From NCBI GenBank assembly GCA_965140935.1, contig CBCSLL010000017.1:225104-285799 (forward strand): DNA of 60,696 bases, written 5' to 3'. The first letter of the stretch is position 1; each line of letters starts with the position of its first letter. A program made the position numbers and the translations under genes. Shown here one piece after another: positions 8,959-30,668 of this stretch. Under the pieces are notes generated by a model. It searched no databases. It saw only the letters and a list, made by a program, of their open reading frames with translations, and was not told the origin of the DNA. Origin of the DNA: Rotaria magnacalcarata. Lineage: Eukaryota.

Positions 8959-9387
8959 CTTGTCCGGCTAACTCAGCTACCGGAGAATGAGTGCGTTACT
9001 ATTTTTATACATTTTGTTTTTCTCATTACTTTTGAACAGTTTACCAGAGAAACACGGGCGACATCTGGTTTTGTTCGCTAAAATGTGCTCTACATAGTAT
9101 ACTGTTCATTTTTGCTGTCTAAAATGTTCTTTCACCTGTCTTCCGAAAAGTACAACAGAAAAAAAAGTAGTTTAAACATATTAAGTAAAGTTTGTATTTT
9201 CCGTAAGGCAGGTGAAAGAATATTTCAGACAAGAAAAGTGAAAAGTACACTTTGTAGAACACACTTTAGTGAACAAAATAAGATGTTGCCCGTGTTTCTC
9301 TGGTAAACTGTTCACAAGTAATGAGAAAAGCAAAATGCATAACAATAGTAACGCACTCATTCTCCGGTAGCTGAGTTAGTCGGACAA
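8959..9387. mobile_element. Long palindromic (foldback / hairpin-type) element, about 430 bp
   Basis: 8961-9060 is the reverse complement of 9295-9387 (cttgtccggctaactcagctaccggagaatgagtgcgttac ... gtaacgcactcattctccggtagctgagttagtcggacaag; one mismatch seen). The inner part is also an imperfect inverted repeat. A direct repeat flanks it (cctcggagattcttgagta at about 8867, gtcggagttcttcaagta at about 9405). Confidence 0.6.
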
Positions 9388-10355
9388 GCTCAGTATTGAA
9401 GTCAATGTCGGAGTTCTTCAAGTAAAAATATCCAATGTTTATATTCTTCTATGCTAAACAAACCTTATTTGTAGAATGTCATGTGATAGACAAAAATACA
9501 CGACTGTATAGATTCAGCAATAATTTTTAAAACAAACAAAAACACGAAAGGAGCGCAATATTCTCATTAATAAATAACAAAAAAGAAGAAGTATGTACAC
9601 TAGCCAAAAGCGAATTTCGAGGGTGGAACTGAAAAAATGAACAATTGCGGCTACATATAACTTTAATTTGTAATTATAATAAACTAATCTTCTTTGATGT
9701 TGTATTTTTAAAAGGTGCTTGTTAGTATTGTGAAAAATTGTCATGGAGACTTGATGAGTGCAAAATTTCAAGAACTTGTTCGATATGTAAATATAGAGAA
9801 AATAAAAACTCTTGAAATCCTGCATATTGAATTCAAAACTGATATTATTTTCCTTATGCGATTTGTCAATAAAAAGTATTCGTAATTAGTCGATCGGTGA
9901 TTTCAAAAATAAAATCAAGTCAAACGTTCATATTATCTGTTTTATTAAAATCTATCGAGTCTTCTATATGATCGTATTACATACAGCAAAGTGTCTCGTA
10001 CGGAATATGCTTTTTTAACTTATTAATCAACTGTATATGAAGTTATTTGAAAAATCAAATATTACACTGCTTCTGATGCAGTTCTTCATCGATTGACACT
10101 TTGTGTATCTATAAGAAAATTTTATATGAAATTGGAAATTTGCTTTTTCACCTCCTTCAAGAGCATTTTTTGGTAAAACAAATACTATCGTTCATGAATT
10201 AGTTTCAAATTGAACTCTCATTTGTGAACAATTAGATTTGAATTTATCGATCCAGTGATCAACTATTTGTTCTCGAGCTTTTTAATCGTCTTAAAAGAAT
10301 AGATATTTCTATGAAAAACAAACGTATAGATTAAGTTTTTAAAAGAAAAACCATT

Positions 10356-13300
10356 TCAATTATTTTTAACGTCAAGACCGAATGATTCAGCCATGTCTAC
10401 TGAATTGTCAGTTATCCACCAAAAATTCATATTGGTACGTTCAAGTGCCCAAAAGCGTGCATCAACATTTGCGTCGACACCTGGTGTTAATGCGAGAAAA
10501 TCATTTAACTAAATAAAATAATAACGCATATTGAAGAACAAACAATTACAAATGTTTCATCGATCTTAGTTACTTCAGTATAATGAAATTCATCTTCAAA
10601 TGTTGCTGCTATCTCAATCAATAATTGCCCTAGTCGTTGATTGGTGCGTTCGTAACTATCATAGCAAAACAACAAATATCTAATATTATAGATAGAAACC
10701 GAAAACATACGTTATTTGAAGTTCATTCCACTTGTTTCGATAATAATACCAGGCTAATTCACGACCTGCGACAAAAGAAAAATTTCAGAAAGACAATATT
10801 TTTATTTATTAGTTTTACTAACCGACAGGATTCTTTGCAAGTAATATTAACACTTCTAACAAATCCATATTCAGATCACGATTGTAGTCTGCATCTTCAT
10901 ATAAAAATCTAATAAACAAAACAAAACAAAAACCAATGCTAATTTTGTGAAATAGTTTTTTTCTTACTGATACAGATGCCATGGTTGACGTGATTGTAGC
11001 AATCCTTTGAGTAAACGATAGCGTTCTTGTACATCAACAGTCATATAAAAACTAACTTCAATGCTTATCCATTCACTATCATTATATGTATTTTGAAAAT
11101 TCGTTTGATATACTACATCACGCGCATGAACAACAATTCTGCAACGAAAAATAAGAACTAATTAGTTGTTTTTTTAAGAATTAAATAACAATACAGATAC
11201 TAACGAATGATTTACGAGTCCATTAGCTAAATCTGGATATCCTTCATCCCATAATGTCGTAGCTTTATCAATGCATTCATGTAATCGTGTTCGACACGCC
11301 AATTGAATAATTATAGTTTTTAGAATACTGAAATAAGAAATCGTATTTGTTTTAAAAATATATAACTACCAAAAAAGAAAAAGATTGTAATTACTGATCA
11401 GAAAATGTTCCTTGATCGTTCCATAACGATACTTCATTGTTTCTATAATAATTGCGAACAACAAGTTGAAAATATTTCTATTTGAAAATTAAAAACAAAA
11501 CATTTTTTTCTTCTTGATTCATTTTAGAAATATTAAATTTTACTTGAACGGCACCAAATAAAGATTCATATTCAAGTACGTCGAGCATACGATTTGCATG
11601 ATACGATAAAACTTGCCATGGAAGTAAACCTGAATAGGCACTACGAAAGAAGAATTGAGTAACCGATCGAACAACTCTATAACTTTCTTCAGTAGTTTGA
11701 GCACTTAAAAATGCATTGTTTATTAAATTAGCTCGATCCTTGTCGGTTATTTGTGTATTATTATTATCTAATGCTTCAGCTAATTCTTCCCAATTTTCAG
11801 ATGTATAGTCCATAATATAATACCCGGCGAAATCCGTGTTACAATAGAAATAATTATAATAAACATTACCGAAATCTACATTCATAGTGACGCGATCAAG
11901 ATAAAATGTTCGATTGTATGAAAATGTTGTTGAATCATTACTAAATCGACATGTTATAGGAACATACCAAACGTAACCAAATGGAGTTGTCTCCGGTGGA
12001 TATAGGTCATATTCATACAAGTGTTCGCTTAAATGTCGATTTTGTATCAATTGAAACGTATAATTACCAGTGGAGGCATTTCCAACAAAATGAGCGAATA
12101 TTTGTGGAAAGTTTGGTTGTAATAACCAACGATCGAAAAACTCGTGACCATTCCATGGACCAATTTGAAATGTAGAAGTTATTTCGTCTGGTATAAGAAA
12201 TCCATATTCATTATCGCGAAGAAAAGACTAAAAAAATGAAGCAAACAATTATCAACTTATCACCTATCGAGAATGAAAATATTTGAATTGATTTCACAAA
12301 ACGAAGATATTTCAAGAAAATTATTTTGTTTTCGGGACTTAGACAATCCGATTGGATAAAATGTTAAGGTTGAACTTCAATTCACATTTACCACAATATG
12401 AGCTAACGTATTATCTTTGATACCCGTTGTTTGTTCCATATAGTAATCAGCCATTTTAAAAATTGCTGCCGTTTTTGTTACTTCAATATTATCAAATAAT
12501 CCATCAATATCTGTTCGACTATTAACTGATTTCTGTATTGGATGTGATACACTCAAAGAATCATCGAACATAGTTTTGAGAAGTTCTCCCGTGTAAAATT
12601 GATCTTTCTAAATAGAGAATGAAAATATTCAATTGTAGTTTTGCATTTGAAACATACGATATTCCATTGTGGAAAAGCAGCATCAATTGCCTGATATTTC
12701 AAATAATTCGCAAGTGCCTCTTGTAGCCATAGATCTGTCCACCATCGAAATGAAATGAAATTTCCACACCACTTTAGAAAAACAAAAATGAAGATCACGA
12801 AATTCAAAGATACTAAAAGTAAATCAAACCTGTTCAGCCAATTGCTTGGCAAGTATTAAAGCAATTTCTTGGTGTTCACTTGCTGATATTGTTTTTGGAT
12901 TGTGAAGAATAGAAAGTTCATGAATAATAATGAAACCCCAATGTGACACTGCATCAGATGGATATTCAGGTACGGCGAGAACATCTAGATCAAATCGAAA
13001 TTTGAACTTAGACACTTAAGTATGAGGAAAAAAAAACCAATCTGTAGTACTTATTTGTGTTGGCACAACAGTCGTTTTAATTTCTTCAAAGATATTTAAC
13101 AGAGCAGTAAAGATTTCACGAAGCATCTCTAAGGGTCCATCAATATAGACTCCATTATCATTGGTAAAAAATTGTTTGCGTGCCCATAGATTAATCTATT
13201 GTTCAACAAAGCAAAACAGAAGAGATTTACTAGACAAAAAATTTGGTTTATGATGCATACACTAATCTGTCTGCCAGTGTCTGGATACGTTGTGATTACT

Positions 13301-14403
13301 GTTTTCTTATCAAAATCTTCAGTATAAAATATTGAAAAAGCAATTAAGCTAGTTGGTATTGCTGGTACGGTTTGAAATTCAGTTTGAATGTAATTCTCAT
13401 CTGGAAAACTTTCCTAACAAAATTGAATGAGATTAGATAGAAAATATTTTTCCTATGTTCTCACCGATTCATCCCAATTACTTAAAATCGTAGTATCATT
13501 CTCGTGTCGAACAGTTAATTCAAATTTGGCTTTAAAATCTGGTTCGTCAAAACATGGAAATGCTTCACGTGCATGTACTGGCTTAAAATGTGTTAATATT
13601 ATACGTGATGCACTAAAATAAAATATAAAAAATCATCAAAAACAAATTATCGCCGTTTTCCTCTACTTTAGTCCAGATGGATCGGTAGTGAATGGAACTT
13701 CAAATATGCCAGTTCCATGAAGACTTAATGCACGAAAGAATGAAATACGGACATCATACAAATTGCCAACTTGCAATTGTTCTCTTAAATGTATGGTTAA
13801 CGTTTGCGTATTAGGAAACGGTAGAACACAATCAACATTTAATGGAATATCATTTGGAGATGAACGTTGAGTAACAACAACATCTGATATGAGCATTTCA
13901 CCATGAAGAATTATATCATATGTAGATGAACGAACTTCAAGAACGATATCCACAGTACCACTGTATTCGTCTTCTCCTTCATTTAATTCAAATAATTCTA
14001 ATGTCAATTGATATTCATTAGGATAAACATTCTTTGGTAATCGACTCTGGCTCCATGGTGCGCTAGGATCAAGTGGTGTGGCACAGCAACCAAACTCGAA
14101 ACATGGTACATTAGCTTTTTTTGATGCTAAACTACGTTTCGGTCGAGAATAATAGACTTGTCTTGGTTTAGGTTCATCTGGTTTGATCAGTTCACTACTG
14201 TCGATATAACATTTAGTATCCTGAGCCCAGTACAATGACACAATTGAAACAAAGAATGCCGATGAAAGAAAAACCACGATTAATAGAGTACATATAGGTA
14301 CTGTTAAATTAACTTTTCTATGTAAAAATGATCGTTGCTGATCAATATCTCCGAGCAAGATCATATCATCTTTGCTGTTCGCCATGAAGACGTCGTTTTT
14401 CAT
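10356..14403 (-). CDS. Type II membrane M1-family aminopeptidase N-like protein with degenerate active site (predicted non-peptidase homologue); multi-exon span
   Basis: ATG at 14403. Exon 1 has a signal-anchor (ICTLLIVVFLSSAFFVSIVSLYW) followed by an aminopeptidase-N N-terminal domain (PWSQSRLPKNVYPNEYQLTLELF...YSGTVDIVLEVRSSTYDIILHGEMLISDVVV). The exon at about 12860-13010 reads SDAVSHWGFIIIHE where M1 enzymes have GAMENWGL. It is spliced to the exon at about 12720-12784, giving LILAKQLAEQ|WCGNFISFRWWTDLWLQEALANY where M1 enzymes have HELAHQWFGNLVT..WW.DLWLNEGFA. ORF 11478..12050 carries an ERAP1_C-like motif (DKDRANLINNAFLSAQT). Stop at 10356-10358. Confidence 0.8.
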
Positions 14404-15317
14404 TGTAAGAGTAACGTTGAAATATTTTCATTATAAATATACTTTAATTTATAAGCTATGTTGTAAAGATAGCGTTGCTAACCACGATTGAATTTATTAC
14501 AAGTTCGATAGATTCTTTTAGATTTCACTTCTTTTCGTCTAGAGACGATTGAATGTTGAGTGGTTTTTATGGATGTATAAAATCATTGTGAAAGTCGACG
14601 ATCATTTCATGCTTGAAAGTTTACTACCTTCAAGTCATAAAAGAAACCATTTAAGGACCTGATGATAAGAAATTGCATTTGATCATTTTAGTAAAAAACA
14701 AATGTACAATAAAAAGCATCGAATGATATTGAAGAGTATTTCGATTGCCATAAAGGATTCAACAGAGAAGACAAATCTTTCAGTATTTTCTTTGGTTTTG
14801 ATTTGCGATTTGTTTGAATAGAACCAGCTTGAAACTAGTGATTCTTGTGTTTAATTAAAATGAATCTGTTAGTTACTTTATTATTTTCTTAACAAGCTTC
14901 TTTTTAACGGTTCGGATAAAATCTATGTTTTGAATTATGTTGTCGATTTTGCAATTCGATTATCATTATCGAACCGAAAAACTATGCATTCGATATTTAA
15001 TTTGTTTCGAAAGAAACAAAAAAATTCACCTATTCGCAGTAGTTATAAAAGTCATTTTATCCTTTGCATTGGATGTTTTATTAGTCGAAAGAAAACAGGA
15101 AATTATGTTGAAGCAGTTTCCTTGATGCAATAGAAATGAATTGAATCATGTATTTAGTAGAATTTATTTTTAATAATGCATGTAAGAAATTTAACGTCAT
15201 CTAATAAGTTCTAGTTCAATCTAATTATATCTGTACAGAAACTATCTTGGATAAGCACGTATAAAAATAGAATAAGCGAAAAGAACAATATTATGTAATA
15301 TATCTGACATTGTTGAT

Positions 15318-18300
15318 TTATTCATTTTCTTCTTCATCGACTTGCTCTTCATCTTCTGGCACCTCTTCTTCAGCTTGATTTTCTTGTTGACTTGTTTGTA
15401 ATGTTCGTTGTTCATCAGGTATACTGTCCAAATTAAATCGAAAATCTCGTACAGCAGACATTTTAAATGTTTCTAATAAACGTTTCTAAAATAAAATTTC
15501 AAAAACTACGGATGAAAATGTATCGAAAACTATTCATGTACGTCTTGTTGTTTGCCTAGTTCAAGTAATGAACGTTCATATTGTTCCATTTGATAGACTA
15601 ATTTTGGTACCAATGTATCTTTAAGAACACTTTTTTTCTACAATACAAAAGAAAATATCTCTTTATTTATGTTAAAATCGTGTAAATTCAATTCTATACC
15701 TTTTTTGGATCCTTTTTATCAGTTTTTTTCTTTTTCTTCTTAACAGTTTCTTCTTCATCATCTAATTCCAAAGTCTACGAGGAGAAACAACATCAAGATT
15801 CATTTGATTTTCTATCCGTGATATAAAAAAGAAAAGTATAATTACCATTGTATAAGTCACAAATCCGTAGCAAGGTTGTTGCAATTGTGAACCGGATATT
15901 GATGCAAGTTTTTCAAATTCATCACGAATTGGTGTTTTATTTTTAATCATCTATAGAATTTAAAAACTAAAATAAAAACATACGAGAATAATTTCATACT
16001 TGACGAGTAAATTCATCAAGAATAGTATATAGTTTCGTTATTAATTTCACTATGTTAATTATTGTCATTCTATTTTTCAATCTACATTGTACAATTTGTC
16101 CGAATGTTGTTACTGAATATGATACTTGTCCACAAAAATGTGTCACTTGATCTTGTGATAATGATTGGGTTTGAATTATCCATTCAAGACTATTTATCAT
16201 ACGTTCTAATTCGACAATAAGAATATTATTTAATATAACCATATGAGTTTTTTCGTTAATTATAGCAAAATAGGGTTGATGAATAAATTGTGTCTATGAG
16301 TCAATACGACATATTTTAGAAAGTAAATTAAAACAAAATAAAGTAAATTTACATCTTCAGAAACATCTTCACATTGACCATGAATATCCATAGCAATTTT
16401 ACGAAGTAATGGTGCATGATTACTTATTTTGGATGAAAGTTTAATTAGAAGACGAACCAATGCTTTACTTAGTTGATGATCCTCTAAAATATACAGGCAA
16501 TATGAAAGATTGAGTGGATCACAAGTGTACAAATCATAGTGTTAGATTGTTATACCTTCGATAGATGTTGCAGAATTTCTCACTAAGTCTTTGAAGATTC
16601 ATTCTGAGCACGATTAGTATTTCTAGATGATGTTTAGCTCAGTAAATAGAAATGAGTGGGTCGTTTGTCAATTCTCTAAGGTTACAAAATAACTATCCAA
16701 GAAAACTTAATTTTAAATATAGCAAAAGTTTCATTCGAACAACCGAGTACTCTGAAAAAAATAAAGGAGGTTTACAGAACCCTCCGAAAAGGTTCTGTAG
16801 ATTTTCAAAATGCTCCAAATGTGTCCAAAGTCTCAAAAAAGGATAAAAATTTTGACAGAACCTTTTTTTCAGTTCTGTACAGCAAAAAAAGGTTCCGTGA
16901 GAAAATACGAAACCTTGAAGGTTCTGTACAAAACCATTAACCGTTGGTGCGTAACCCTAATGGTTCCGTACTGAACCCAATCGTTTTGTAGAGAACCTTC
17001 AAGGTTTTTTATTTTCTCACGGAACCTTTTTTTGCTGTACAGAACCTTAAAAAGGTTCTGTCAAAATTTTTATCCTTTTTTGAGACTTTGGACACATTTG
17101 GAGCATTTTGAAAATCTACAGAACCTTTTCGGAGGGTTCTGTAAACCTCCTTTATTTTTTTCAGAGTAGTAATGGAACGTATAGTTGAATTCGACTATTT
17201 TTACAAGCCGTTCACGATTGTTTTTATTTTTAATTCTAACGGACGAATCATAAAGAGCGAGAAATTCTCCATGTTCTTTGCTAATCAATAAATATGTAGA
17301 GTGATTTTATGCGGACAAAAGCATTGCTGCATCATACCGTATTTTCCTTGCATACAAGTTGAACTTGCCCATTCAGCAAATGATTGATATTCATTTCGAT
17401 CAATATGTTCGCCATCTTTTAATGCTAATTCAAGAATATCTGCAACATAAATTAATGCTTTTAAACAACTCGAGACTTTTGCTGTTGACCCATCTACACC
17501 AGCTGTTTCCATTATTTGATTGTATTCTCCTTCAATTCTTTTATAAATTGCCTAATGTATTTAATAAAAAGTAAATCTCTGGTGTTTATCGAAAGAAATT
17601 TTACTGTTTACTTTAAAACTTTCAGCAAAACGAGCTGTTTGAGGATCAGTTTGACTATAACTTATATTTGAATCAACTGCATCAGGATCACCAGACAATG
17701 CTTTCATTGCACTATCGATCATTAAAGCAGCTGCACCACGAAAATTAAGCACAATAATTTTCCATATTTCAACAATTAATTGTAAAATTTGTTCTGTTAA
17801 TATAATACTGATATCTTTTGTTACAGCTTGATATAGAATTCTATGAAATTTAGAACAATCATTTTTTGTTGTCGTTTATTATTTGCTTCTTAAACTTACA
17901 TATGAAGATCAATCAAGATCATTTGTAATTTTTCCTGTCGCATATTTTCAGCATCAAAATAATGTTTAATACCATTTGATGCAATAGAACGAAATTTCGA
18001 TAAACAACATCGCATAACATACGTACGATAGTTCATATCATCGATGAGTGCATCAATTTCAACACTATTATTTGATGCGTCAAGATCCGTATGAAACATT
18101 TTAGGCCATAGGATTGAGTGTAAAAACCTTCGTAAACATGTAAATGAAATAAGCTTGCCTGTTGTTGGTAAACGTAATTTTGCTTTTGACATTTTATCAT
18201 GAAGACGAGATTCTTGATCAATAGATTTCAAAATACTTGCAGGCGATTCTCTATAAGAAAAACAAAAAATGTCTATAATGAACGAAAGACGCTGCAGAAA

Positions 18301-21300
18301 GTGTTGTAGGATAAGACTTTTTTGCAGTCTGACTCCGTGTATTCTCAACTACAAAACCTCAGGAACGGGAAGAAAACTCTTGATCTAGGAAATAAAATAA
18401 TTTAACAACTTACGAATCTTTCATTCGCATAAATTTATATTCAATAAGAACATTACATATATCAATACAAAGTGTATACATTTGTGGACTTGTCTTATCG
18501 TCAGGTAGACCTTTAACCTAAAATTGATTGTTTCTTGTTTGCTTTGAAAATACACTGTTAAAAATAGCAACTATTTGTTAAACTTACACCAACTGAATCA
18601 GTAAATTCATCATCATCAAATAGAATAATAACTCTTTTGAAAATATCCATTGCTTTTTTTAAATAAACTGCTACGTCTGGATCGTCATCGAATATTTTCG
18701 GATTTGCTTTTAATAGACAATCGGAACGATGCAAGCAAAGGCATAAACAATGAAGTAAATGTGCCTAAGAAAAATTCATATGCTATAGTTTTATCGAATG
18801 ACAAGAAACAGATTTTCAACTTACAAATGGTTCAACAGCTTGTATTTTATCGTCACGTTCAATTAAACAAGAAGATAAATTTAATGTACATTTATCACAA
18901 ATCGGCTCGTAGTATAATGCAATCTAGATTCAAAAATAAAACTCTATTAAACATGAATCTGTATAAATCATGTGTAGAATTCTTTTTGTCGCGAGTCGCA
19001 CGATCATTTACGATTGTCTAGATCGAATAAGTAAACAGAGATTATTAAAATATTTCTATTAAGATAATTCGAGTCTCTAAGATAGATTTATTCTTCGATT
19101 GAATTTTGAGTAGAGCTAAGTATTGCTCAACTCTGTAAGAAAATATCCTACAAAATAAAAAATAAAAAAAAACGCTTTATTTACCTGAGAAATCAGCATA
19201 TCAAGAATTGGTGCCATAAGAATTGGACTTTTACAAAGAACAGGTAATAAACCCTTTGAAATAAAATTAGTTCTGACAAATCTTTCGCGTTTTATTTCAT
19301 ACTTCATAAACTGTCAATCGAACATCATATTGTTGTGTCAAACTTCGTCTTAATTGCATCAATAATTCGATACATTGTCCTTCGGTTGATCGTTGTGTCG
19401 AATTAATTGTGTTCATTTGTGTTGCACCACGCTGCAAACAAACGAAAAGTGAAAATTCTGTTTTACTCCGAAGACTTCACCGAATAAGTTTACGTCAACT
19501 AAAGAAAACATTGTCATTTGGCTAGCTTGAGCAGCTGGTGGTCGTATTAACCATTTCGCATGTTTCAATAAAATCAAATATCCATCAACAGCCATTCGAC
19601 GACAATCAAGACGACTAGAATAAATCGACTACAAACTGTAGTTTCACTCATTTCGACACTTACGGACGATACATAGCTGTGCGAAGTAATTGAAAATAGG
19701 TTTCACGAAATGGTGTATTACCACTTAATTTAATAATCGGTTTAAACGCATCAATAACATCGTGCGCTAAATCATAGCGCATTAATAAAATTTGATCGAG
19801 TCGATCTTTTAATTGTTCAGGCCATTTTACGAATCGATGACTATTTGTTTTCATGACATCGTATAATTGTTCTACAAAACACGTTTTTATGTATAAAAAT
19901 TATTTTTTGTTTTTCTTTAAAACGATACCAATAAAATGTTTAACGGTACGATCGTTTGCTTTTGCTTCAAGAATTCGATCGAATAAACGATGTATAATAT
20001 CTTCTTGAATAGATTTATGTAACTAAATATTGAATTCAGATTTTCAATAAGAAACGAAGCGGTCAAGAGCTCATACTCGAACTATATCAGAGAGCCACTT
20101 TGAAGCTAACGTTTTCAATAGTTCAATAACCGAAAATGAGGATTCATTCATTAATGTTGGTGATTGACTATATTCATCGAGTAATTGAAAACAAAACTCG
20201 ATTAAACCCGCAAGAATTAAATCGCCACCAAATAATCTGAATAGAGAAAAAGAAATTCAAACAATTGAAGTCAATAGATTTTCTCTTGGTTTTACTCTTT
20301 TTTTGCAAGTTGTAATAAATAATCTCGATAGAAATCATTATAATTTATCTTTGTAAAAAGTATGAGCCAAAAAGCTTCATTATTCTTTTCAAATGTTTGA
20401 CAAACAAGATCAAATGACGTTTTAAGTTGTTTTATAAACTAAACAAATAATATTTCTATCGGCGTCAAGAAGTTTTCATTGAATTTACTTTTCCTTTTAT
20501 TGTTCGATCTTTTGGTAGAGCAAATATAAATGCAAGACAAAATGGTGAAAATATTTTCGATACATCATTGCTCTGAATTTTCTGCATCGAAAAACAAAAG
20601 AAAATAATAATTTTTTAGATAAATAATTTTACTTTAAATGTTCTTAGTAATGTCATGCCAAGATCGGCCGATATTTCAATAGTATTTAGTATATGAACAA
20701 TACAAAGACGAATATTTGATGTATATTGTTTATTACTAGAATTAATCAAAAACAATAGATACTGCAAAATTCTTTCGCCAATTATTCATTGTCAAAGGCA
20801 AACAAATCTTAGCAAGAAAAAATTCAAATTGACATTTTAAAACGAAAGTTTTCTTATCTCTCGATAAACTAAACATCATGATATTTTAAACAAAAATAAA
20901 AGGAGAATACTTCTGGATTGCCGTTCTAATTTGCACCGTCTCATTACAATACTAATATGTCGAAGTCGATAGGACTGAATGCGCTCGTAGAAGGTATTTT
21001 TAATTTCTTTCCGATACGAGTGTTTGCTGATGAAAAGTAGAAGAACAGTAGTCTATGAACTTTTCGAGTGTGCTTCAAAAAAAGACGAATATTTATTTAC
21101 TCATATGATTTTGAATCAAGATTAATAAAATATTGTATTAAACGATCGAAAATGTATCCACTACAACTTGTTATTTCATTTTCTAAACGATTATCAACAC
21201 ATAATTGTAGAATGTTTAATACGAAAATTGGTAATTGATCAATGGATGTTTCGAAATCAATTGTAAACATAATATCAATAAATGCACGTTTTTCATTATC

Positions 21301-22488
21301 AGCAAATGGAAGTGTTCTAGAAATTGGAAACATTTTTATTATTATTATTGTTATCGATCTATTGTCGAATAATCCTATTTACTTTATCACAGCTATAAGG
21401 CTAGCATAATTGTCTTCATTCCATCTAAACAATATATATATATATATATATAATTATATAGATTACACAAAAATTGTGAATATTTTTATTTTGTTCTTAC
21501 GTTGTATTTCCTAATTGTTGAACAATAGTTTGACACATTGATGCTGCTAACGAGGAACCTGATTGAGTTTCATCTCGTTTAACTAATTGTAAATAAATAC
21601 TTCGCACAAGTTCAATCATTCTAAAATTAGAAAAAGCAAATTTCTACATAGGAAAATAATTCTCTCGTGTATTACTAACATGTCAGCACTTGCTGCTGAT
21701 TCGATAAGATTTTGAATTATTTCATGAGTAAGATCGAGTAATGCTTCCGATGATATGCTATCAAGCTGAATACAAACAAAATATAGAGTAGAACAAGAAG
21801 ATGATTTCGTTTTTCTTACATAAATAATCATAAGGCCAACAATTTTTGTAAATACAAGATGATGAACAGTTGATACTGATGATGTAACAATAATTTGAAT
21901 AGTTTTTTTAATAAATGTCGGAAGAATTGTTGGATCATTGTTTTCGTCGAGACATTCTAGATTGAAAACAAAATTCTTTCAGTCATTTTCATTGACAAAT
22001 TTTTGAGATTAATTTAAACCGTCTTCTGAATATTGCGTGAGAAACTTAACTAAATTTGAGCAAATTTTGGATGGAGATCAGTTCAAGCATTTATTCCAGA
22101 TGAGAATTAAATCAAAAATCAACTCTCTCTTCTAAGGATTTGATTGAATGAAGAGAAGGAAACCCGTCACTCGCAATATTATTCACAAGTTTGACGTTCT
22201 TTTAAGTTGACTATCTTTCCGATTGGATTATCTTGTATATCTACCTTTTAAAGATTGTTTAAAAATATCGAAAGGTCGTGATTCCGCATCATTGACATCG
22301 ATGGACGATCGAAATTTATCGATGAACTAAATAAAATAAAAACATTATATTTTCTCTCTGAAAAAGTCTAATCGAATATCGATTTGTTTTACCTTATCAA
22401 AATGACCATTAGTATTTACCGATGAATTCGTTGTTTTTTGACGTTTTGACATTGTATCATCGTTATTAAGCTGCTGTGTTCTTTTCAT
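15318..22488 (-). CDS. FANCI: FANCI-like (Fanconi anaemia group I) large alpha-solenoid protein; about 20+ exons; span
   Basis: ATG at 22488 (MKRTQQLNNDDTMSKRQKT...). The exons at 19413..19595 and the next one downstream encode LDCRRMAVDGYLILLKHAKWLIRPP...CIELLMQLRRSLTQQYDVRLTVYEVFTELSQKYP. This matches the human FANCI region as remembered ([22 protein letters not shown]...[33 protein letters not shown]). The final exon ends in an acidic tail (DEQRTLQTSQQENQAEEEVPEDEEQVDEEENE, stop 15318-15320), like the FANCI C-terminus. The call rests on recalled sequence, not a search. Confidence 0.6.
16755..17168. mobile_element. Perfect long palindrome / foldback element, about 410 bp
   Basis: The left half (aaataaaggaggtttacagaaccctccgaaaaggttctgtagattttcaaaatgctccaaatgtgtccaaagtctcaaaaaaggataaaaattttgacagaacc...) is the reverse complement of the right half around a centre near 16960. 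ORFs 16652..16846 (+) and 17070..17288 (-) share an identical 30-aa tail (EKNKGGLQNPPKRFCRFSKCSKCVQSLKKG) as an artefact of the symmetry. Located inside the FANCI-like gene, presumably in an intron. Confidence 0.7.
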
Positions 22489-23039
22489 CTAAAGAAATAA
22501 TTGGCAAATTAGATATCAAAGAAATTATCTGTATTTTTCTCTTAGATCTATGGATACGAAATACATCAGAAACGAAATTTTTAACACAATAGATTAGTTG
22601 AAATAAGCCGTTGAAATTTTCAAAGTGAATCTCTTTCTTCATTTATAAGTTGTTCGGTTACTGTCTCTGACTTTATTAGTTTCGAGGTGTTTTTCGTTAT
22701 TAACGACTTCATCACTCGATTGGTCTTTCAAATAAAACGAAAGGAACGAAAATTACTGGTTAATCTATTGTGATCAATAAGAATTATGTGACGAAGCGGG
22801 GCGTTCATACCAACATCTGTGAGAAACATCACATGAAGTCTACTGAACTTAGATAATAATACATCTATATTTATTTAAAAAATCGTAATCAAAAATTTCG
22901 AAAAAAATATTCTTAGAACAAAACGAGAAAAAGATTAAGTCACAAATGTCAGTTTCAGGGTGTGGGTGTGGGTATGAGTATGAATGCGGGTATATGTTGT
23001 CTTCTTGTACACCCACATCCTTCAAGAAACTATGTAAAT

Positions 23040-23960
23040 AGTTCCAGGGGTGGTGGAACGATCTCAGTCTTGGGTAGACTCAACTTTTGCAGTCCGAGTC
23101 AGTTAGCCCAGTGAAAAAAAAATCAAATTATGGAAGATTTCAGTAGATTATAATCGGAGTTTTCTGCACCAAAATCCAAATTATAATCCATTGAAATCTT
23201 CTAAGTCAACGATAACTTGATTTTTAGGCAAACAATAATCTTAAAAATCCAGCAAAATTTATATTAAAATCATGTATGTTTGATTAAAGTCATATAATCT
23301 GGATTTAATACGATTTTAATCAAAATCTTATCGGATTTTCAAGATTATTATTTGATCAAAAATCAAATTATCGTTGTCTTGGAAGATTTCATGGGATTAT
23401 AACTTGGATTTTGTTGCAGAAAAATCTGATTACAATCCACTGAAATCTTCTATAATTCAATATTTTTTCACTGGGAGGAAGCCAGTTAAACGTGATTTTC
23501 GTATTTTGTTTGCAACAGTGAACGCAATAGGTTTTTGTTAGACTTCCATGCGGTATAAGTGTGATTACTATCTGCTGCTATATTCTCGCGAGACAAAAAC
23601 GATCCAAATGAATATCAGAGAAAAAGTGTTTATAAATTTTTTTTAAATTCTTCAAAGATTAAAACTATGAAACACCAAAAAATGTTTTTCGATTTTGATT
23701 CTTGAAAATAAAATCACAAAAGATGCTGTTCCTTTAATACTAGTTCATACTGGGAAACATATGGAATGACCTTGCAACAACGAGAAATCTGTCACTGTCG
23801 GTAGAACATAAAAACTAAATTCTGGTAAAAGATCTTACATTTAAGTGCGCCTCCCTAAGCCTTCATCTACCTTAGTTTGAGCCTACCCAAGCTTCAATCT
23901 ATCCGAGTTTGAGTCTACTCAAGCCTACCATATCCAAATCTAGGGTAGGCTTGTGCCTAC
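23040..23960. mobile_element. Composite inverted-repeat element: inner palindrome 23107-23476 nested in outer inverted repeats (about 23060-23108 and 23860-23930), plus 22-bp degenerate tandem motifs at 23840-23960
   Basis: cccagtgaaaaaaaaatcaaattatggaagatttcagtagattataatc... (23107 onward) is the reverse complement of ...gattacaatccactgaaatcttctataattcaatattttttcactggg (to 23476). Outer arms: cttgggtagactcaacttttgcagtccgag (about 23065) and ccgagtttgagtctactcaagcctacc (about 23895). A GT-rich run (tgggtgtgggtgtgggtatgagtatg) at 22957-22998 abuts it. Confidence 0.55.
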
Positions 23961-26160
23961 TCAGGCCTAATGGCTCCGCCGCCACTGAATAGTTCAGTTC
24001 TCAGTCAGAAAAAAAGTTTAATACGAGTAGCCCTTGTCAATGTTACTCTAATTAATATCTAATAGCAATGAATGAAATACGTGATGAAGATTAATGACAA
24101 CTGAACTCGTGATTTGTTATTAGATTCATTAAATGAACAATTAATTTCTAGGAAATACAATTGATGAATGGCCCCATAAAGTGACTGTATGAAAAATAAT
24201 CAATAAAAACTCGATTTTGAGTTTCGAGTCCCCAAATAAAGCGCATGCCATCAAAGAATATGTACGTATCATTTATATGTTTTCCAGCGTAAGAAAGAAG
24301 CGGGGCTTTTCTGGACTCTTCAGAAAAAATTGGGAGAGGCAAACAGGTTTCGGAACACAGAAAACTTTGTCCGACAGGTCTCTAATGAAACCAGTTTTAT
24401 TCACTCACACAAAAATTTACTTTCATTATTGCAAGTAGCACGGGCCTATCTAATAATTGAGACACACCCACATCCTAAAGAGAAAATTGTTAAAATTCAC
24501 GGAGAAAATGAAGTTTCAGTGCACTAGAACGAATTAAAACTAAATTATAAAATAAACTCCCATCCACAGAATTAGAAACGGCTGTGAAATTTACTATACT
24601 GAGACTAGATGTTAATGACAATGATATAAATAGTATTCTACATCATTTTTCTATGTATCTGGGACGAGCAAAAGCTCATAACGTCAAAATATATATAAAC
24701 GACAACGATGATGAGGGTGACAATGAAAAATAGGCAATCTTTTGAAAGAGCATTGCTTTTGAAATTATTGATATAAACAATTGTGTGTAGCAAAAATAAA
24801 CTTGTTTCTCATCTATCTCAATTATTTGCGTGAATGTATGAAGACACAAAATAGCGAAGAAAATATTCTTCCAATTCAGTTGATAACAAAATGCTTCCAA
24901 CTTCCAGCTGAGAATACATTTATTTGACTGTAAAAATTCCTGATGCGAAAAGCCGCTTCTCTTTATCTTTGGAAGACTTTCTTCTTGAAATTTTATCTTC
25001 TCGCAGCAGAATTAAACGAAAACTATGCTTGTGCATTATTTATATAGTTTTCATCTCGTACACAACCTATCCTTTTCTTTTCATCGTCAACAAAAAAATT
25101 GAAATTCGTATTTTATTTCTCTTTTTTCTTCTTATTGTACAATTGGAAAACAAAATATCTAACGTGCTTTAATCATTTGACCTGAATTCAACTGAGAGAA
25201 TGTACCAAAGTTATCCTCTTCATTTTTGTTTTCCTTCTATTTTTCTGTGGACATCAATAATGTGTAACAAAGAAATTAATTTTTTTCTAAATCAATCAAT
25301 TATTTCCGACAAGCAATCAAATTCTTTTCGAACAGGGATATTGCTCTGGAAAGAGATATTTAACATTATAATTATTCAGAAACAATTAATGCCATTAAAC
25401 ATACATAAAAAAAAACTTGAAAAAAAAGACGTCTAAAAACTGCTTTTCATCTTGAAAGATTTCAAGTTCATATTTGCAGCATTCAAAGTAACGATACTTA
25501 CTTGGTCAAAAAATAAGAATAGTTTTCGATCAATAATGAAATGTAGTCTATGGAGAATAGTGTCTAAAGTGCAATTACAGAGATATTTTACATTTCACAT
25601 TCAACTCATATCTGTCAAATACTATTTTGAATTATTGTATACATATATCTATAATCTGTATCATATATCGTTGTTGTATCTGTCCGATTATTCAATAGAA
25701 CCAATGATTTGAATTCGATCTATTACTATTGTAATACACTAAAAGCTTTACTACTGAAGACTTCCTAATTATGAACACTCAGGTCTGACAAAGTAGTTTT
25801 TGCTTGAAATATTTTTGGATGTTTGGCTATTCTAAGTTGTGAACACTTTTTGTAGTTCCTCTTGTTATTAGAACATCTTTAATGTGAACACAAGTACAAT
25901 GTCTTGTTTAAGCGTCTTCTATTCTCTATCATTTGCTTCTTATGCACTATGAATGCATTAGATAAAAATAGATAGTCGGAAGTTTGTTCAGAATTAATGC
26001 AGGATCAGATATTATCTAGGTTTTTCTTCATGCCACAGCAAACTGTATATTGTCTCTCTAAAATGAGTGTCTCCGTATAGGGAACGTTTTTAAAAAGTGA
26101 TGAAGGTGTTCACAATAGAGAGGTTCATTGTAGTGTCAAAGCAACTAATCATTTTCACTA

Positions 26161-26974
26161 TTAACCCTTTGAGTCCTAAATTTTTTAAATTACCAGGAAT
26201 GGTAGACCTAGGTATGCTGATGAAGTCCTACTATAGGGCAGGTTTTGGCAATTCCGTGGTTTTATCTGAGGAGGATGCAAACTTGGGAAAAAATCGAAAG
26301 TTGGTTCCAAAGATGCCTTTGCCGTTTGACTTCGGAAGAAGCTACAGATCTGGGAGTTTCAGCATTAGATAGATGGCAGTTAGTCGATTCTAGAACATTA
26401 ATAAAAGTTAAAATTCTGTTTGGGTTTCATAGAGATATTTCAGTCAAAAAAACATCAAAAATTAGCATTTTTTGCAGGTTTTTCCCGAAAAAATAGAACA
26501 CGGGGGAAAGCATATCCGCTACAAAGAAATGATCAACTCAACGAGTGGCATCTATGGTAAAATTTTCAGACTTCTCACATTTGTAATATAGGAGTCAGAT
26601 AATGTCCGATTTGCCTGGGAGGTCCCACCTTGTCCTTCCAATTTGCACCCCTTTACAAGGTTTTCAATTTTTTCGAACCTACAGCTATGCTTACAGGTAT
26701 AAGTCCTACACAAGCGCTGCAAGTTTCATTCCATTCCAATAAAGTCGATGTAAACTTTGGTACACCTCAAATAAGCACCTCTATAGAGTCAAAACTTCGC
26801 AAGGTGCATGTTTCAATGTTGTCATCCATACAGTCCATTATTCATGCAATCGTGTAGGGATCTGTGTTAGCTTCTGACATTTTTTTTGAATATTTCTTTA
26901 AGATTCTCAAAAACTTGAGGACTAGAAGTGTTTCAAGGTGGGATATATGTGTCCCACCGGGACTCAAAGAGTTA
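26161..26974. mobile_element. piggyBac-like non-autonomous element (MITE), about 810 bp, with TTAA at both ends
   Basis: Left end ttaaccctttgagtcc (26161-26176) and right end ggactcaaagagttaa (26959-26974) form 15/16 inverted termini. Each begins CCYTTTGAGTCC directly after TTAA, like piggyBac-family TIRs (5' CCC... inserted at TTAA). Internal ORFs are short and unconserved. A third copy of the terminus (ttaaccatttgagttcc) sits at 27426-27442. Confidence 0.45.
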
Positions 26975-28570
26975 AACATTACAACGGAGGATCCATTGAA
27001 TTTTCCACTAATATATTATATAAAACAACTAAGTATGAAATACATTATATAACATGGCTTATGCACATTGTCCAACAAAATTCAGGGTAGTAAATTTAGA
27101 AAAAATATTGCATATTTTACTTTACGAACGAGAACATCAATGTTAGTTAACTTATGTTTTAAAAGTAGTGATTGACGATTATATTAATCATGGAGAATAA
27201 TAAGTAAAAGAAATGTTTTTCTTTATACAAAAATGAACGCAACATGAATGCTATACACGTTGATATCATTCTACATTCATGTAAATCAATCCTTGAACGC
27301 TGATTTCTTCAAGATATTTCATTACTCAATTAGAATTTGGCTAATAAACAATGATACTCTTAATTTTTGTGATAATCATATAAAGATGTTGACGTTCTAT
27401 TATTAGAAAATCCGAACGATATCATTTAACCATTTGAGTTCCAGTGGTGCATATACATTCTACCTCGAGAGTTTTCAAATTTTCGAGCTTTTCAGAATCT
27501 TTGAAATATGTTTTCAATAAATGCTAGAAGCTAGCAAAGATCCCTACAAGATTAAACGGACAATATAGTCTATGGAGAATATTGAGAAGTGCTTCATGCC
27601 AAGTTTCTTTAGTCAAAAAACGTTTTGACCTTATAACCTCGATTTTAAAAATCTTTCATTTTTTCCTTTTCGTTAGCATAGTTCATTCAAACGAAGTAAA
27701 GATAGAAGTAGAAAGCAAATACAAGAAGCATATGGGAGTGTGTGTGCGTCCACTGCTCAGGTCTATAATCGCCTATTCCCACATTCACACTAACACCCAG
27801 ATCCAGTCACTGAAGAAATGTTTCTCTTTTATGGCTTTAAAACTGAAGATGAGATAAGACAGCAATTAAAAAAGAAAAATTATTAGGATTTTGCCTTTGT
27901 CTTCAGAGTGATTGTACAACAGGTAACGATAATTGGGTAACCGATACAAGTGGTTCTAACTCTACAGTAGTTATTAATAATGATACGAAAAATACGGCAT
28001 TTCTAACGAACGATTGTATACGATTGATGTTAGGAAAACATTCTAGCAAGTTCTTTTTCAAAATAAATCTATTGAATTTTGGTTAGTTTTCAGTACCTTC
28101 ATTAACTTGTTTTTGTTTTAATTTTTTTCATGAAAAATATCTTCTTGAAACCGAAATAGAAAAGAACTTAAATATTTTAGGATAATATCTAGACTTCTGA
28201 AGCATGAAACAGCGAATCAATATCAGGATTAATTGATAGAAAACGTTGCGTTCGCACTCGTCAACAGTCGTTATTACACCGTATGGTCATCATTTACCAC
28301 CCTAAATCACGGCATAATTCCATTCATTTTGACGAATCTGAACATCACGTAAGAAAATCACTTAAGATCTTTGTTTTATAGAATGTTGATACACCAGGCT
28401 ATGGAAATACACAAGTGATGTAAAACAACTATTATTAATGATAAAATGTTTCATAATGAAGATGACTATAGAATGAACATTATATTTTTTTTGTTTTATG
28501 TAAATACGCTTTTTTTCTTGATTATTTATAAGCATATACAAGTAAAGAGTAGATGACGAGATTTGATTAA

Positions 28571-28745
28571 AGAATAGTGGTGGCGCCACGGTGGGGCTAA
28601 GGGAAGCTGAGCCCTCAGATTTTTTTTTGGAGATTTCCTAGTGAGTTTAATTTTTTCTGATATTAATATTTCAGAGCTTGGAATCGAGTCCGCTCACATC
28701 TAAATTTCTGGCGCTGCCGCTATTAAAGAACCCTGGTTTAACCAT
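28571..28745 (+). mobile_element. Possible tRNA-derived SINE / pol III-type retroposon fragment
   Basis: GC-rich head ggtggcgccacggtggggctaagggaagctgagccc and a B-box-like ggaatcgagtccgct (compare GGTTCGAATCC), then an A-rich tail. No clean tRNA cloverleaf. Weak. Confidence 0.2.
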
Positions 28746-29774
28746 AAAAGAATTTCTACATCAATAAATAAGAAACTTCGTTTTCAATGTATGACATCAG
28801 TACTGATAGCAAGGGAGCGTCTGGATGGCACAACCGTCACCAATGTTATCTTGATACTTGTTGTGTGTTGCTCTCTCTAGCGTCCCTCTCTTTTTCTGTT
28901 ATTGTCTTTTGCGCCTAATGTTGTTACTTTAATATAATTCTATTCTTATTCTAATTTTCTTGACGCGTTTGTCTCTTCTCTTAAATGTAATCACATCGAC
29001 ACACTCCATATCGTTCGCTCATCATGCAAGCGTATCTATATCCACTTCGACTATTCCATTCTCTCAAAACGCTTGCTAGCTACTTTCTTTGTCAAGTTCT
29101 TGTTCGCATATTTTTTCTGTTCATTGAATATATTATTGGATCTTTATCTACATTAAATTTTTATTTATCTCATGAATACTATCTGACATAACCAACTATT
29201 GTTGTACCTAGTATTTTGAACATTTGCGTCTGTGATCCTTGTCAACACGATACACATGCCCCTTTAGGCAGAAGAAATAGATGAAATATTTATTACGCAT
29301 GAATGGATAAGTAATATACACGCAGGAATAGGTAAATTTGAGAATACATTGGTTTTATCATCTAGGTTGGGTATAATAAAAAAAAGAGAAAAGTACTTAT
29401 ACGCATGAATTGAAGTAGGTATAATTGTATCGAAATAGTTTTTGCATATCTGCAACGTTTAAGCCGGAAATCAATTAGTTTCCAGTGATATTTCGTAGAG
29501 TCTTACTACTTTGTATATGAGTAAAGTTCTTGAAAGAGTCGAAATCTTTCCATTATAACATTGTAAAAACTTGAAAATAAGCGATCTTTATTTTTCAGCA
29601 CTCTACGATGTTTGCATTTGGTCAGATGCAGCCTGGTGCAGTGCCATCATATGAAGTACGAGGATTTCACGTTTTCTTTGGTAGACAAATTATTCCTCGA
29701 GTTAAATGAATCGGATTCAAAGATTTAGAACAAGGTTACGGTTAGTCATCACTGCTAGTTTTTCTAAATTTCCA

Positions 29775-30668
29775 TATATACCGGGTGTTCCAAAAGTTCC
29801 TTTAAATAAAAAAGATTTAATATCTCCACCGCTCTTTCATCAAATGAGCTCATTTTTTCTTGATGGTGGAGGATACTTTGAAGTATTTTTTCATTGGAAA
29901 ACTATGAATAGATACAGCTTTGAACTGTCACTTTTAACTTGAATATCGAAATGTATCCATTTTCGATATCTAAAAAAATCCTTTCGACGGAGAATTCCTG
30001 AGATCATTAAAAGCGTTTGAGTGATTAGAAGCTTTTGCGACCATATTTTCCCCACTACTAGAGGACCACTGGACAATAATGACTTCCAAAAGGTTCATGC
30101 TCTTGTGCAGTTTTGGCTGAGATATGAAATTTTCAGTGACTTATCTCTTCGATGACCCCAATTTTTCGAAGAAAATTATAGTTTAGAATTTTGACCTGAA
30201 ACTTTGGCCAAAATGAGGTTTCACTGAGAGTAGTTTCTGTACAAAATTTCAGGATTTTTGGATATAGTCGTTCCGAGATCTGAATTTTTCAAATTTTGCA
30301 CAATATCGACAGAAACAGCGCCTAAATTTTGAAAAATTCATATCTCAGAAAGGTCATATCCGAAAATTCTGAAATTTTGTACAGAACCTAGTTTGTGTGA
30401 GACCTCGCTTTGATCAAAGTTTCAGGCCGAAATTAATAATCTCGGGAAATTTCCTTTGAATATTCTCTTTGGAAAATCGAAAATCGGTACATTTCGATAT
30501 TCAAGTCAGAAACGATAGTTCAAAGCAATATCTATTCATAGTTTTCCCATGAAAAAAAACTTCAAAGTATACTCCACCACCGGAAAAAAAATGAGCTCAT
30601 TTGATGAAAGAGCGGTGGAGATATTAATTTTTTTATTCAAAGGAACTTTTGGAACACCCGGTATATAC
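29775..30668. mobile_element. Long palindromic foldback element, about 890 bp, with roughly 200-bp terminal inverted arms and a second internal palindrome
   Basis: Left arm tatataccgggtgttccaaaagttcctttaaataaaaaagatttaatatctccaccgctctttcatcaaatgagctcatttttt... is the reverse complement, at about 90% identity, of the right arm ending ...aaaaaaaatgagctcatttgatgaaagagcggtggagatattaattttttt attcaaaggaacttttggaacacccggtatata. The interior (about 30200-30420) is itself inverted around about 30300 (gacctgaaactttggcc ... ggcctgaaactttgatc). ORFs 29706..29942 (+) and 30536..30739 (-) share YIPGVPKVPLNKK purely from the symmetry. Confidence 0.7.

Follow-up and report, generated by a model that had tools for sequence, protein, structure and literature searches.

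The palindromes found in the window (the whole stretch of 60,696 nucleotides analysed) are in all likelihood class II DNA transposons of the foldback/MITE type, short, non-coding and non-autonomous. They are inverted repeats across nearly their full length, and their host is the bdelloid rotifer Rotaria magnacalcarata, an assignment backed by exact matches of proteins to R. magnacalcarata records and by the assembly table of PMC7943196. They are ordinary mobile DNA and nothing here shows that they act as RNA genes. The elements are fresh examples of an already known type, and recent class II activity fits existing knowledge.

Bdelloid rotifers are the standard textbook case of ancient asexuality, and the persistence and movement of transposable elements (TE) in these animals is a long-running question. 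At one time, the gene-rich DNA of bdelloids was described as nearly free of TE (PMC2861651). The locus provides two base-resolved and cleanly dated DNA-transposon insertions, E2 and E4, which occurred after the split of R. magnacalcarata and R. socialis, one of them (E2) within an intron of an essential DNA-repair gene. These insertions are concrete evidence for recent class II activity in a bdelloid and for where it is tolerated. The locus is also a caution for annotators: the mirrored open reading frames (ORF) and the hairpins are here transposon relics and not genes.

Architecture of the palindromes and their setting

Reverse-complement symmetry was located by self-BLAST of the window and by repeat finding, which yielded five palindromes of 369-893 bp (Table 1). 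The four that had been claimed in a preliminary description were all recovered, with coordinates off by 0-7 nt, as was the palindrome nested inside E4; a fifth and weaker one, E5, had been overlooked. The term "near-perfect", previously applied to the elements, is appropriate for E2 alone and does not hold for E1, E3 and E4 (84, 80 and 70%, respectively). The arms of E2 are 92% identical (E=2e-139) and their outermost 120 nt are 100% complementary. The self-match of E1 reaches 84% across 436 nt (E=3e-119) and that of E3 80% (E=3e-82). The outer arms of E4 are 85% identical, compared with 70% over the entire length (E=7e-109), and in E5 the identity decreases to about 70% for the arms and 60% overall (E=1e-33).

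Table 1. Coordinates of the palindromes in the window, and of the intron that hosts E2.
Feature	Position	Strand	Description
E1	8956-9391	.	436-bp palindrome over full length; arms 8956-9155 / 9192-9391, 84-88% complementary
FANCI intron hosting E2	16484-17337	-	854 nt, canonical GT...AG
E2	16748-17168	.	417-bp core 16750-17166; TA target-site duplication (TSD) at 16748-16749 and 17167-17168
E3	23107-23475	.	369-bp palindrome; arms 23115-23271 / 23312-23468, 80-83%
E5	26792-27606	.	815-bp degraded palindrome; arms 26825-26976 / 27425-27576
E4	29775-30667	.	881-bp core 29781-30661 within (TA)n tract; TA at 29779-29780 and 30662-30663; outer arms 29775-30012 / 30431-30667
E4 inner palindrome	30165-30460	.	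arms 30187-30297 / 30324-30434, 78-81%; loop 30298-30323; 74% overall

As single strands, the palindromes fold at -164 to -439 kcal/mol, with z = -24 to -43 against dinucleotide shuffles. Chance is therefore excluded. The elements are within the size range of MITE, with E4 and E5 (815-893 bp) at the top of it, and terminal inverted repeats (TIR) are present in all five. None has coding capacity. Their ORFs are short and mirrored, and no Pfam domain was found in the ten longest ORFs of the spacer. The mirrored ORF pairs are artefacts, as was already recognized, because they follow from the palindromic symmetry; they occur in three elements (E1, E2 and E4) and not in two as stated before.

Every palindrome falls in a gap relative to the compact orthologous loci of two other rotifer contigs (L002 and L006). 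Across related species the intergenic spacer has expanded through the accumulation of such elements, with sizes of about 0, 9 and 45 kb. The R. socialis spacer contains at least six additional palindromes, several of them flanked by TA. The elements pile up in introns and in the fast-growing intergenic spacer, where they are tolerated.

Target sites, relatives and termini of E2 and E4

E2 is located inside the FANCI-like gene, in agreement with the earlier claim: the rebuilt gene model with the E2-bearing intron corresponds exactly to the annotated 1313-aa protein. The homologous intron in related rotifer contigs measures about 60-90 nt. In all five R. socialis assemblies the site is empty and reads CGAACAACGGAG-TA-GCAATA, with one TA, versus TA[E2]TA in the window. 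E2 is carried by two further R. magnacalcarata sequences with a variable interior, one having a different centre (L029) and the other being more symmetric (L028). These comparisons show E2 to be an insertion that postdates the R. magnacalcarata / R. socialis split. The element would leave the FANCI transcript by splicing, together with its host intron. Two other FANCI introns, 21100-20736 and 19184-18906, were considered as TE-derived inserts and rejected, since they are common to other rotifer contigs (L007 for the first, L006 and L002 for the second).

The TIR of E2 is CTCTGAAAAAAATAAAGGAGG, and the arms are composed of short GGTTCTGTA/TACAGAACC hairpin modules. The terminal 29-46 nt of both E2 and E4 are identical from arm to arm. 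The families of these two elements include further copies, one for E2 and two for E4, all in environmental rotifer contigs. The E2-like copy (L010) has unrelated flanks, and its homology begins exactly at the TA/CTCTG junction. The E4-family copies (L011 and L012) are about 82% identical over the whole element and also have unrelated flanks; the L012 copy is complete and reads CAGGG...CCCTG with TA on each side. The consensus of the E4-family terminus, CAGGGTGTTCCAAAAGT, is of the mariner type, and the window copy has CCGGG at both ends.

The empty site of E4 is precise in four of four R. socialis assemblies and lies inside a (TA)n tract; the count of duplicated TA is ambiguous, the target being itself a TA repeat. 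E4, too, is shown to be an insertion made after the separation of the two species. The inner palindrome is kept in all three family copies, which led to the rejection of the idea that it is a nested E2-like MITE. The proposal of MITE or foldback-type transposons is consequently upheld for E2 and E4 by TIRs, TA duplications, exact empty sites and the family copies in other contigs.

The duplication of a TA target on both sides is the hallmark of integration by the Tc1/mariner superfamily. It was found for E2, E4 and the L012 copy, and a TA precedes the L010 copy. In a related rotifer (L007), the homologous FANCI intron is occupied by a bona fide mariner with a terminus similar to that of E4. 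This element carries Transposase_1, and its TIR, a TA followed by CAGGTTGGTTGAAAAGT, matches that of the E4 family (TA followed by the consensus above) at 13/19 positions, with AAAAGT in register. The mariner link of E4 consists of this TIR similarity and the TA duplication; no internal similarity was detected between the E4 family and the L007 mariner. Among the TIRs compared here none matched that of E2 (CTCTGAAAAAAATAAAGG), and no autonomous partner with TIRs matching E4 or E2 was found among the sequences compared. Scans of viral contigs for the E2 and E4 termini returned nothing, and when JGI metagenome contigs were scanned for an exact 20-mer of the E4 terminus, the only two matches were due to chance and stood in unrelated contexts. 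Two proteins obtained with an E4 ORF probe, P0024 (a bacterial FG-GAP-type repeat protein) and P0027 (a repeat protein), were discarded as spurious. E2 and E4 each landed at a TA dinucleotide, now duplicated on either side. In the model proposed, a Tc1/mariner transposase with its gene elsewhere would have mobilised them in trans by cut-and-paste.

Among known systems, the human MADE1, derived from Hsmar1 and the source of hsa-mir-548 (PMC1784062), is similar to E4 in being non-autonomous and non-coding, with a TA duplication and mariner-type termini, and in consisting essentially of two inverted arms capable of forming a hairpin. MADE1 has 80 bp (two 37-bp TIRs plus 6 bp), whereas E4 has about 880 bp, including 235-bp outer arms, a 150-bp asymmetric segment and the second, inner palindrome. 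The copy number of E4 is apparently low and not in the thousands, and it has no known small-RNA product. E2, in turn, resembles the Stowaway-like or Tc1/mariner MITE, which are TA-flanked, short and AT-rich, in its TA duplication (proven by the empty site), its length of about 420 bp, its lack of coding sequence, its further family copy between unrelated flanks and its intronic position. However, typical Stowaway-type MITE have TIRs of 10-30 bp and a non-palindromic interior, whereas E2 is palindromic from end to end and is built from the repeated hairpin modules.

The very long inverted arms, which make up most of the element, and an interior that varies between copies or alleles recall the Drosophila Foldback (FB) elements. 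The arms of FB are arrays of tandem subrepeats, and the target duplications have 9 bp. Neither arms of tandem subrepeats nor a duplication of about 9 bp characterize the present palindromes: TRF detected no tandem array in any arm, and the proven duplications are TA. A precedent in bdelloid gene-rich contigs is the "foldback-like DNA TE insertion" mentioned in a work cited in PMC2861651.

Older palindromes and kinship

E1 lies between an aminopeptidase-N gene and a DCX/EML gene. It is present at the orthologous R. socialis site with 90% identity, is 100% identical in two other R. magnacalcarata sequences (L028 and L029) and is missing from L006 and L002, two rotifer contigs at a greater distance in which the spacer is compact (78-96 bp versus 1.6 kb). 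E1 has the same architecture as E2 and E4 but is an older insertion, common to R. socialis and R. magnacalcarata, now immobile and in neutral decay, its arms evolving independently of each other. No TA duplication surrounds it (the flanks are TTA and AGT). E1 probably belongs to another superfamily, because the flanks suggest instead a candidate 5-bp duplication, GTATT, at 8950-8954 and 9393-9397. A search with one internal-ORF protein probe found no further E1 copy.

E3 lies upstream of FANCI, about 620 bp from the start codon. Its termini read CCCAGTGAAAAAA...TTTTTTCACTGGG, and a separate sub-hairpin is found within each arm. The element is present in all eight other R. magnacalcarata loci spanning the site, with 99.7-100% identity (collinear in L001 and matched in L017-L021, L028 and L029). 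R. socialis homology ends at 23044, 63 bp short of E3. E5 is present in 9/9 other R. magnacalcarata loci covering its site and was not found among the R. socialis loci fetched. In the flanks of E3 and E5 no convincing target-site duplication was found. Judged solely by their architecture and lineage-specific presence, these two are probably remnants of the same kind of element as the other palindromes, in a yet more advanced state of decay.

All pairwise local alignments of E1 to E5 remained at the level of shuffled sequences. Two words, TCTGTACAAAA and GGTTCTGTAC, are confined to E2 and the E4 inner palindrome, with three matches each versus 0.12 and 0.03 expected. The word sharing noticed earlier is thus real, but the related families it was taken to hint at are not borne out: taken as a whole, E2 shows no significant similarity to the inner palindrome of E4 (z=2.6). 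As far as alignment can tell, the five palindromes represent mutually unrelated families, and the shared word is not enough for kinship. The single weak similarity retained is that of the palindrome RsD to the E4 termini. Kinship between the palindrome RsA and E5 (z=4.1) was rejected, the alignment being AT-rich with 58% identity.

Hairpin RNA, arm symmetry and other origins

The palindromes could instead be endogenous hpRNA/siRNA loci, in which the pairing is kept because the dsRNA is diced and either silences cognate transposons or regulates genes such as FANCI. Such a role is quite unlikely. Each palindrome would form a near-complete hairpin if transcribed, and the intronic location of E2 means that the FANCI pre-mRNA must include it. 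The Argonaute and RdRP families are expanded in bdelloids (PMC7943196), the human mir-548 genes arose from a palindromic MITE of mariner origin (PMC1784062) and hpRNA comes quite generally from long inverted repeats (PMC8728187). The geometry of the present palindromes, with arms of 150-240 nt and short loops, is of the kind listed in catalogues of long inverted repeats (LIRBase, PMC8728187) as possible origins of hpRNA. In contrast with hpRNA loci, however, the palindromes give no sign of transcription-dependent constraint, and two of them are shown to have arisen by transposition. Between the arms, G·U and A·C mismatches show no strand bias (p = 0.3-1.0), and transversions account for about half of the mismatches. 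The E1 orthologues lose pairing at the rate of the flanking non-coding divergence (88-92% versus 91.8%), with 38 single-arm changes versus one double change since the species split. Compensatory or wobble-biased change, which would indicate that base pairing is maintained by evolution, was not observed. E2 and E4 are missing from the sister species R. socialis and therefore have no conserved function. In Rfam (15), no family reached the gathering score; the only hit was MIR2606, in the E4 inner hairpin, at 45.2 bits versus 139.7. Given the lack of coding capacity, of an Rfam family and of a G·U strand bias, a selected hairpin RNA is unsupported; siRNAs could still arise as by-products.

The arms behave differently in resident and in propagating elements. 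In the quartet of E1 orthologues (R. magnacalcarata versus R. socialis) the site patterns are ABAB 13 and AABB 1, whereas in the E4-family quartet, which compares the arms across copies, they are AABB 20, ABAB 0 and ABBA 0. The differences between the E4 copies are on both arms (20:0:0), and the palindrome must therefore have been re-symmetrised in the propagating lineages. At resident loci, on the other hand, whole-length symmetry is not maintained. The inverted inner loop of the L011 copy shows that recombination between the E4 arms does take place, and rare whole-arm conversion or template switching between them may be the mechanism. A broader, rather unlikely proposal is that whole-length palindromy is an active property of propagation, in which copies are regrown from one arm and the resulting perfect hairpins feed the expanded RNAi machinery of bdelloids. 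Regrowth from one arm could pass through a single strand folded into a hairpin or snap-back intermediate, or could occur by conversion of whole arms during transposition. If the proposal were true, a 200-bp dsRNA stem from E2 would be present in every FANCI pre-mRNA.

It is highly unlikely that the palindromes are local inverted duplications, made in place by double-strand-break repair through fold-back priming or template switching. In favour of it, DNA breakage and repair are well known to be extensive in bdelloids, the arms are able to recombine, as the inverted loop of the L011 copy attests, and for E3 and E5 neither a second copy, within the loci fetched, nor a clear target-site duplication was found. 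However, the E2 and E4 palindromes are entirely foreign to their sites: the R. socialis empty sites hold no part of either the E2 or the E4 arm. E1 is wholly absent from L002 and L006. Moreover, the relatives of E2 and E4 are found elsewhere, between unrelated flanks and with identical terminal nucleotides, and the TA duplications fit transposase-mediated integration.

The transposon reading also has to be weighed against artefacts, either inverted chimeras generated by multiple displacement amplification (MDA) or inverted duplications collapsed in the assembly. MDA is prone to inverted chimeras. The single-individual R. magnacalcarata assemblies come from DNA amplified with REPLI-g (MDA) (PMC7943196), the arms of E2 are 100% identical over the outer 120 nt and the interior of E2 differs between assemblies (L028 and L029). 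This alternative, which the preliminary description had named, has a negligible probability and, as far as the existence of the palindromes is concerned, is refuted by the recurrence of the elements across R. magnacalcarata sequences and by the divergence of their arms, which is 8-30% where a chimera is expected to be exact. The sequences spanning each site number from three for E1 and E2 up to ten for E4, and the same sites are occupied in every other spanning locus, two to nine per element (L028 and L029 for E1 and E2, eight loci for E3 and nine for E4 and E5). These loci come from ten different assemblies in two accession series. Furthermore, R. socialis has the orthologue of E1, and 13 differences between its arms are common to both species, the E2 and E4 families have the same architecture in unrelated environmental assemblies, and neither arm is homologous to the local ancestral sequence. 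Single-nucleotide polymorphisms between R. magnacalcarata individuals lie within E4 and E5.

Palindromic elements and their insertion sites

The four long palindromes reported in the preliminary description (E1 to E4) are all recovered by self-BLAST and repeat finding, nearly at the positions given there, together with a fifth, weaker and degraded one (E5). No further palindromes of this kind are present elsewhere in the window. The predicted single-strand folds lie 24-43 standard deviations below shuffled controls, in agreement with the hairpins proposed. Since the arms are symmetric, the mirrored ORF pairs are a mere result of symmetry, as had been suggested, but they occur in E1, E2 and E4 and not just in two elements. 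E5 is found in every other R. magnacalcarata locus covering its site.

Coordinates of the features in the window and, where a locus is named, in other rotifer contigs (L007, environmental assembly; L015 and L027, R. socialis)
Feature	Position	Strand	Remarks
E1	8956-9391		arm identity 84%
E2	16748-17168		arm identity 92%, outer 120 nt perfect
E3	23107-23475		arm identity 80%
E5	26792-27606		arms 26825-26976 / 27425-27576, ~70%
E4	29775-30667		arm identity 70% overall, outer arms 85%
E4 inner palindrome	30165-30460		
DUF3605-FANCI spacer	22655-31688		holds E3, E5 and E4
FANCI first intron	22327-22392	minus	66 nt; missing in L006
FANCI intron	21766-21819	minus	54 nt, annotated; within a 90-nt in-frame stretch missing from L006
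FANCI intron	20736-21100	minus	365 nt; also in L007; L006 without intron, exon continuous, 4 codons shorter
FANCI intron	18925-19184	minus	260 nt; ~55 nt in L006 and L002
Mariner, intact-looking	L007 5313-6610		Transposase_1; 29-bp perfect TIRs
Tc3-like element	L007 7772-9479		same FANCI intron as the mariner
R. socialis spacer features	L015 17829-20013; L015 14184-15388; L027 231-3721		

The R. socialis and further R. magnacalcarata loci were reached through the DUF3605 protein cluster and then through a FANCI gene model rebuilt from the window (27 introns, reproducing exactly the annotated 1313-aa protein), and all elements are spanned. E4 is precisely missing in four of four R. socialis assemblies, where the empty site reads TTTCCA-TAGATATACATATATA-CTCGAC, versus TTTCCA-TATATA-E4-TATATA-CTCGAC in the window. 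E2 is likewise missing in all five R. socialis assemblies, with a single TA in place of the TA-E2-TA of R. magnacalcarata. E1 occupies the orthologous site in R. socialis (90% identity), and the R. socialis loci retrieved lack any sequence corresponding to that around E3 and E5.

The protein collections hold ORF-style calls on rotifer contigs, and the ORFs inside the elements were therefore used as family probes. The E2 probe leads to the JGI contig L010, where similarity starts exactly at a TA followed by CTCTGAAAAAAA, between unrelated flanks; the contig breaks off at the centre of the E2-like element. A separate 125-bp palindrome with GAAATTGAAAT-type motifs lies ~20 bp upstream of this copy (L010 749-873). 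The E4 probe leads to two contigs: L012 carries a complete family element, TA-CAGGGTGTTCCAAAAGTCCC...GGGACTTTTGGAACACCCTG-TA, adjoining the 3' end of a metalloprotease-like ORF, and L011 carries the left arm, centre and inner palindrome. The three E4 copies are alignable across the whole element and their similarity ends at the TA. In the E4 family the inner palindrome is conserved along with the rest of the element, and its interpretation as a nested insertion is rejected. The E4 termini of the window (29781-29785 and 30657-30661) both read CCGGG, the other family copies CAGGG.

The TIR of the L007 mariner (Pfam Transposase_1), a TA followed by CAGGTTGGTTGAAAAGT, resembles the E4-family terminus: 13 of 19 positions agree, and AAAAGT falls in register. 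The empty sites of E2 and E4, the TA flanks and the dispersed copies uphold the foldback/MITE-type transposon reading first put forward. The related families once hinted at are not recovered: E1 to E5 are mutually unrelated, and E2 and the E4 inner palindrome do have words in common, but the resulting similarity is not significant.

The questions of RNA-level function and of artefacts

E2 does lie inside the FANCI-like gene, as described, in an intron, and must accordingly be transcribed with it; E2 within the FANCI pre-mRNA is thus a conceivable source of by-product dsRNA. In bdelloids the Argonaute and RdRP families are expanded (PMC7943196), and human miRNAs arose from palindromic mariner-derived MITEs (PMC1784062). 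On the other hand, a selected RNA function is opposed by the sister species R. socialis, which does without E2 and E4, by the absence in every element of a G·U versus A·C strand bias among arm mismatches, about half of which are transversions, and by Rfam, which returns no family and a sole, generic hairpin match below threshold.

The possibility, raised at the outset, that the palindromes are assembly or amplification artefacts, for which the MDA-amplified DNA underlying the single-individual R. magnacalcarata assemblies speaks, fails on five counts: in the R. magnacalcarata loci compared (ten assemblies, two accession series) every other spanning locus is occupied at the same sites (E1 and E2 in L028 and L029, E3 in eight, E4 and E5 in nine), E4 and E5 contain SNPs between individuals, the arms diverge by 8-30%, E1 is orthologous in R. 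socialis with 13 arm differences common to both species, and the E2 and E4 families recur with unchanged architecture in unrelated environmental assemblies.

Arm symmetry and propagation

A four-sequence comparison of outer arms from two E4 copies gives 20 sites at which both arms of one copy differ from both arms of the other, and no site that is side-specific or of the control (ABBA) class; the arms of one copy are 85-95% identical, versus 77-82% between copies. In the same comparison the orthologous E1 copies of the two species display 13 side-specific sites older than the split, together with 38 single-arm changes and one double change. Their arms are 88-92% identical, a divergence equal to that of the flanking non-coding DNA. 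In resident copies each arm therefore decays on its own, and it must have been in propagating lineages that the symmetric differences between paralogous E4 copies arose; occasional whole-arm conversion or template switching could have produced them there.

The inner loop of E4 (25 nt, 30298-30323) is reverse-complemented in L011 (~741-790; alignment score 18 versus 5). Such a flip is what recombination between inverted arms would be expected to give, and the arms thus do recombine. Flanking DNA diverges by ~8-10% between R. magnacalcarata and R. socialis. E4 was already imperfect when inserted, because its arms are 15% diverged, more than could have built up since insertion. The outer arms of E2 are still identical, in line with a very recent insertion.

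The E2 interior (16836-17081) varies ~8-fold more than neighbouring DNA between R. magnacalcarata assemblies. In L028 (15321-15742) the inner arms are almost perfectly symmetric, and L029 (15319-15628) has a different, shorter centre with a module resembling the extra one of the L010 copy. These variants may be true allelic differences, products of ectopic conversion, or family copies mixed up during assembly.

Gene context and the DUF3605-FANCI spacer

The window (~31% GC) is eukaryotic, with long exons that code for a DCX/EML protein, an M1 aminopeptidase, FANCI, a DUF3605 protein and others. The intact DUF3605 ORF (31919-32464, minus strand) has an exact match on a contig of GCA_905319835.1, a single-individual R. 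magnacalcarata assembly (Nowell et al. 2021, PMC7943196), and protein records agree on the species. This contig is 99.87% identical to the window, which therefore belongs to a different assembly of R. magnacalcarata. In the compact syntenic contigs L002, L006 and L007, from metagenome assemblies, the exons are ~75-85% identical to those of the window. The aminopeptidase-DCX spacer measures 1.6 kb in the window versus 78-96 bp in compact rotifer contigs, and the E2-bearing FANCI intron 854 nt versus ~60-90 nt. Among the minus-strand introns compared, FANCI intron presence and length differ between rotifer lineages. L007 4998-9697 is the homologue of the E2-bearing intron (16484-17337); this one intron is hit by independent TE insertions in different lineages.

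The DUF3605-FANCI spacer is a fast-growing TE island: the two genes abut in L006 (~0 kb), R. magnacalcarata has 9.4 kb between them, and in R. socialis the distance reaches 44.7 kb. In the window the spacer lies between the two copies of a ~400-bp direct duplication, which have diverged (22330-22690 and 31712-32080; score 56 versus 16.8±2.3 in shuffles), both copies being homologous to the single gene junction of L006. The R. socialis spacer contains a FLYWCH+MULE transposase gene with 71-bp TIRs, as well as six or more palindromes not shared with the window, all different (185-674 bp). Several of these are flanked by TA, among them RsD, which starts with CTAGGTGTCCCAGAAAT and is weakly E4-like at its termini, and RsF, which starts with GGGATACACC. 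Non-autonomous elements that are palindromic throughout and flanked by TA are thus a recurrent and diverse component of Rotaria genomes, in keeping with earlier mentions of foldback-like insertions (cited in PMC2861651) and GRF-detected MITEs in bdelloids. The palindromes are real and now well explained as elements of a kind already known. The spacer of the window also contains a 32-bp tandem repeat (23849-23924; 2.4 copies, 80% matches) ~370 bp from E3.
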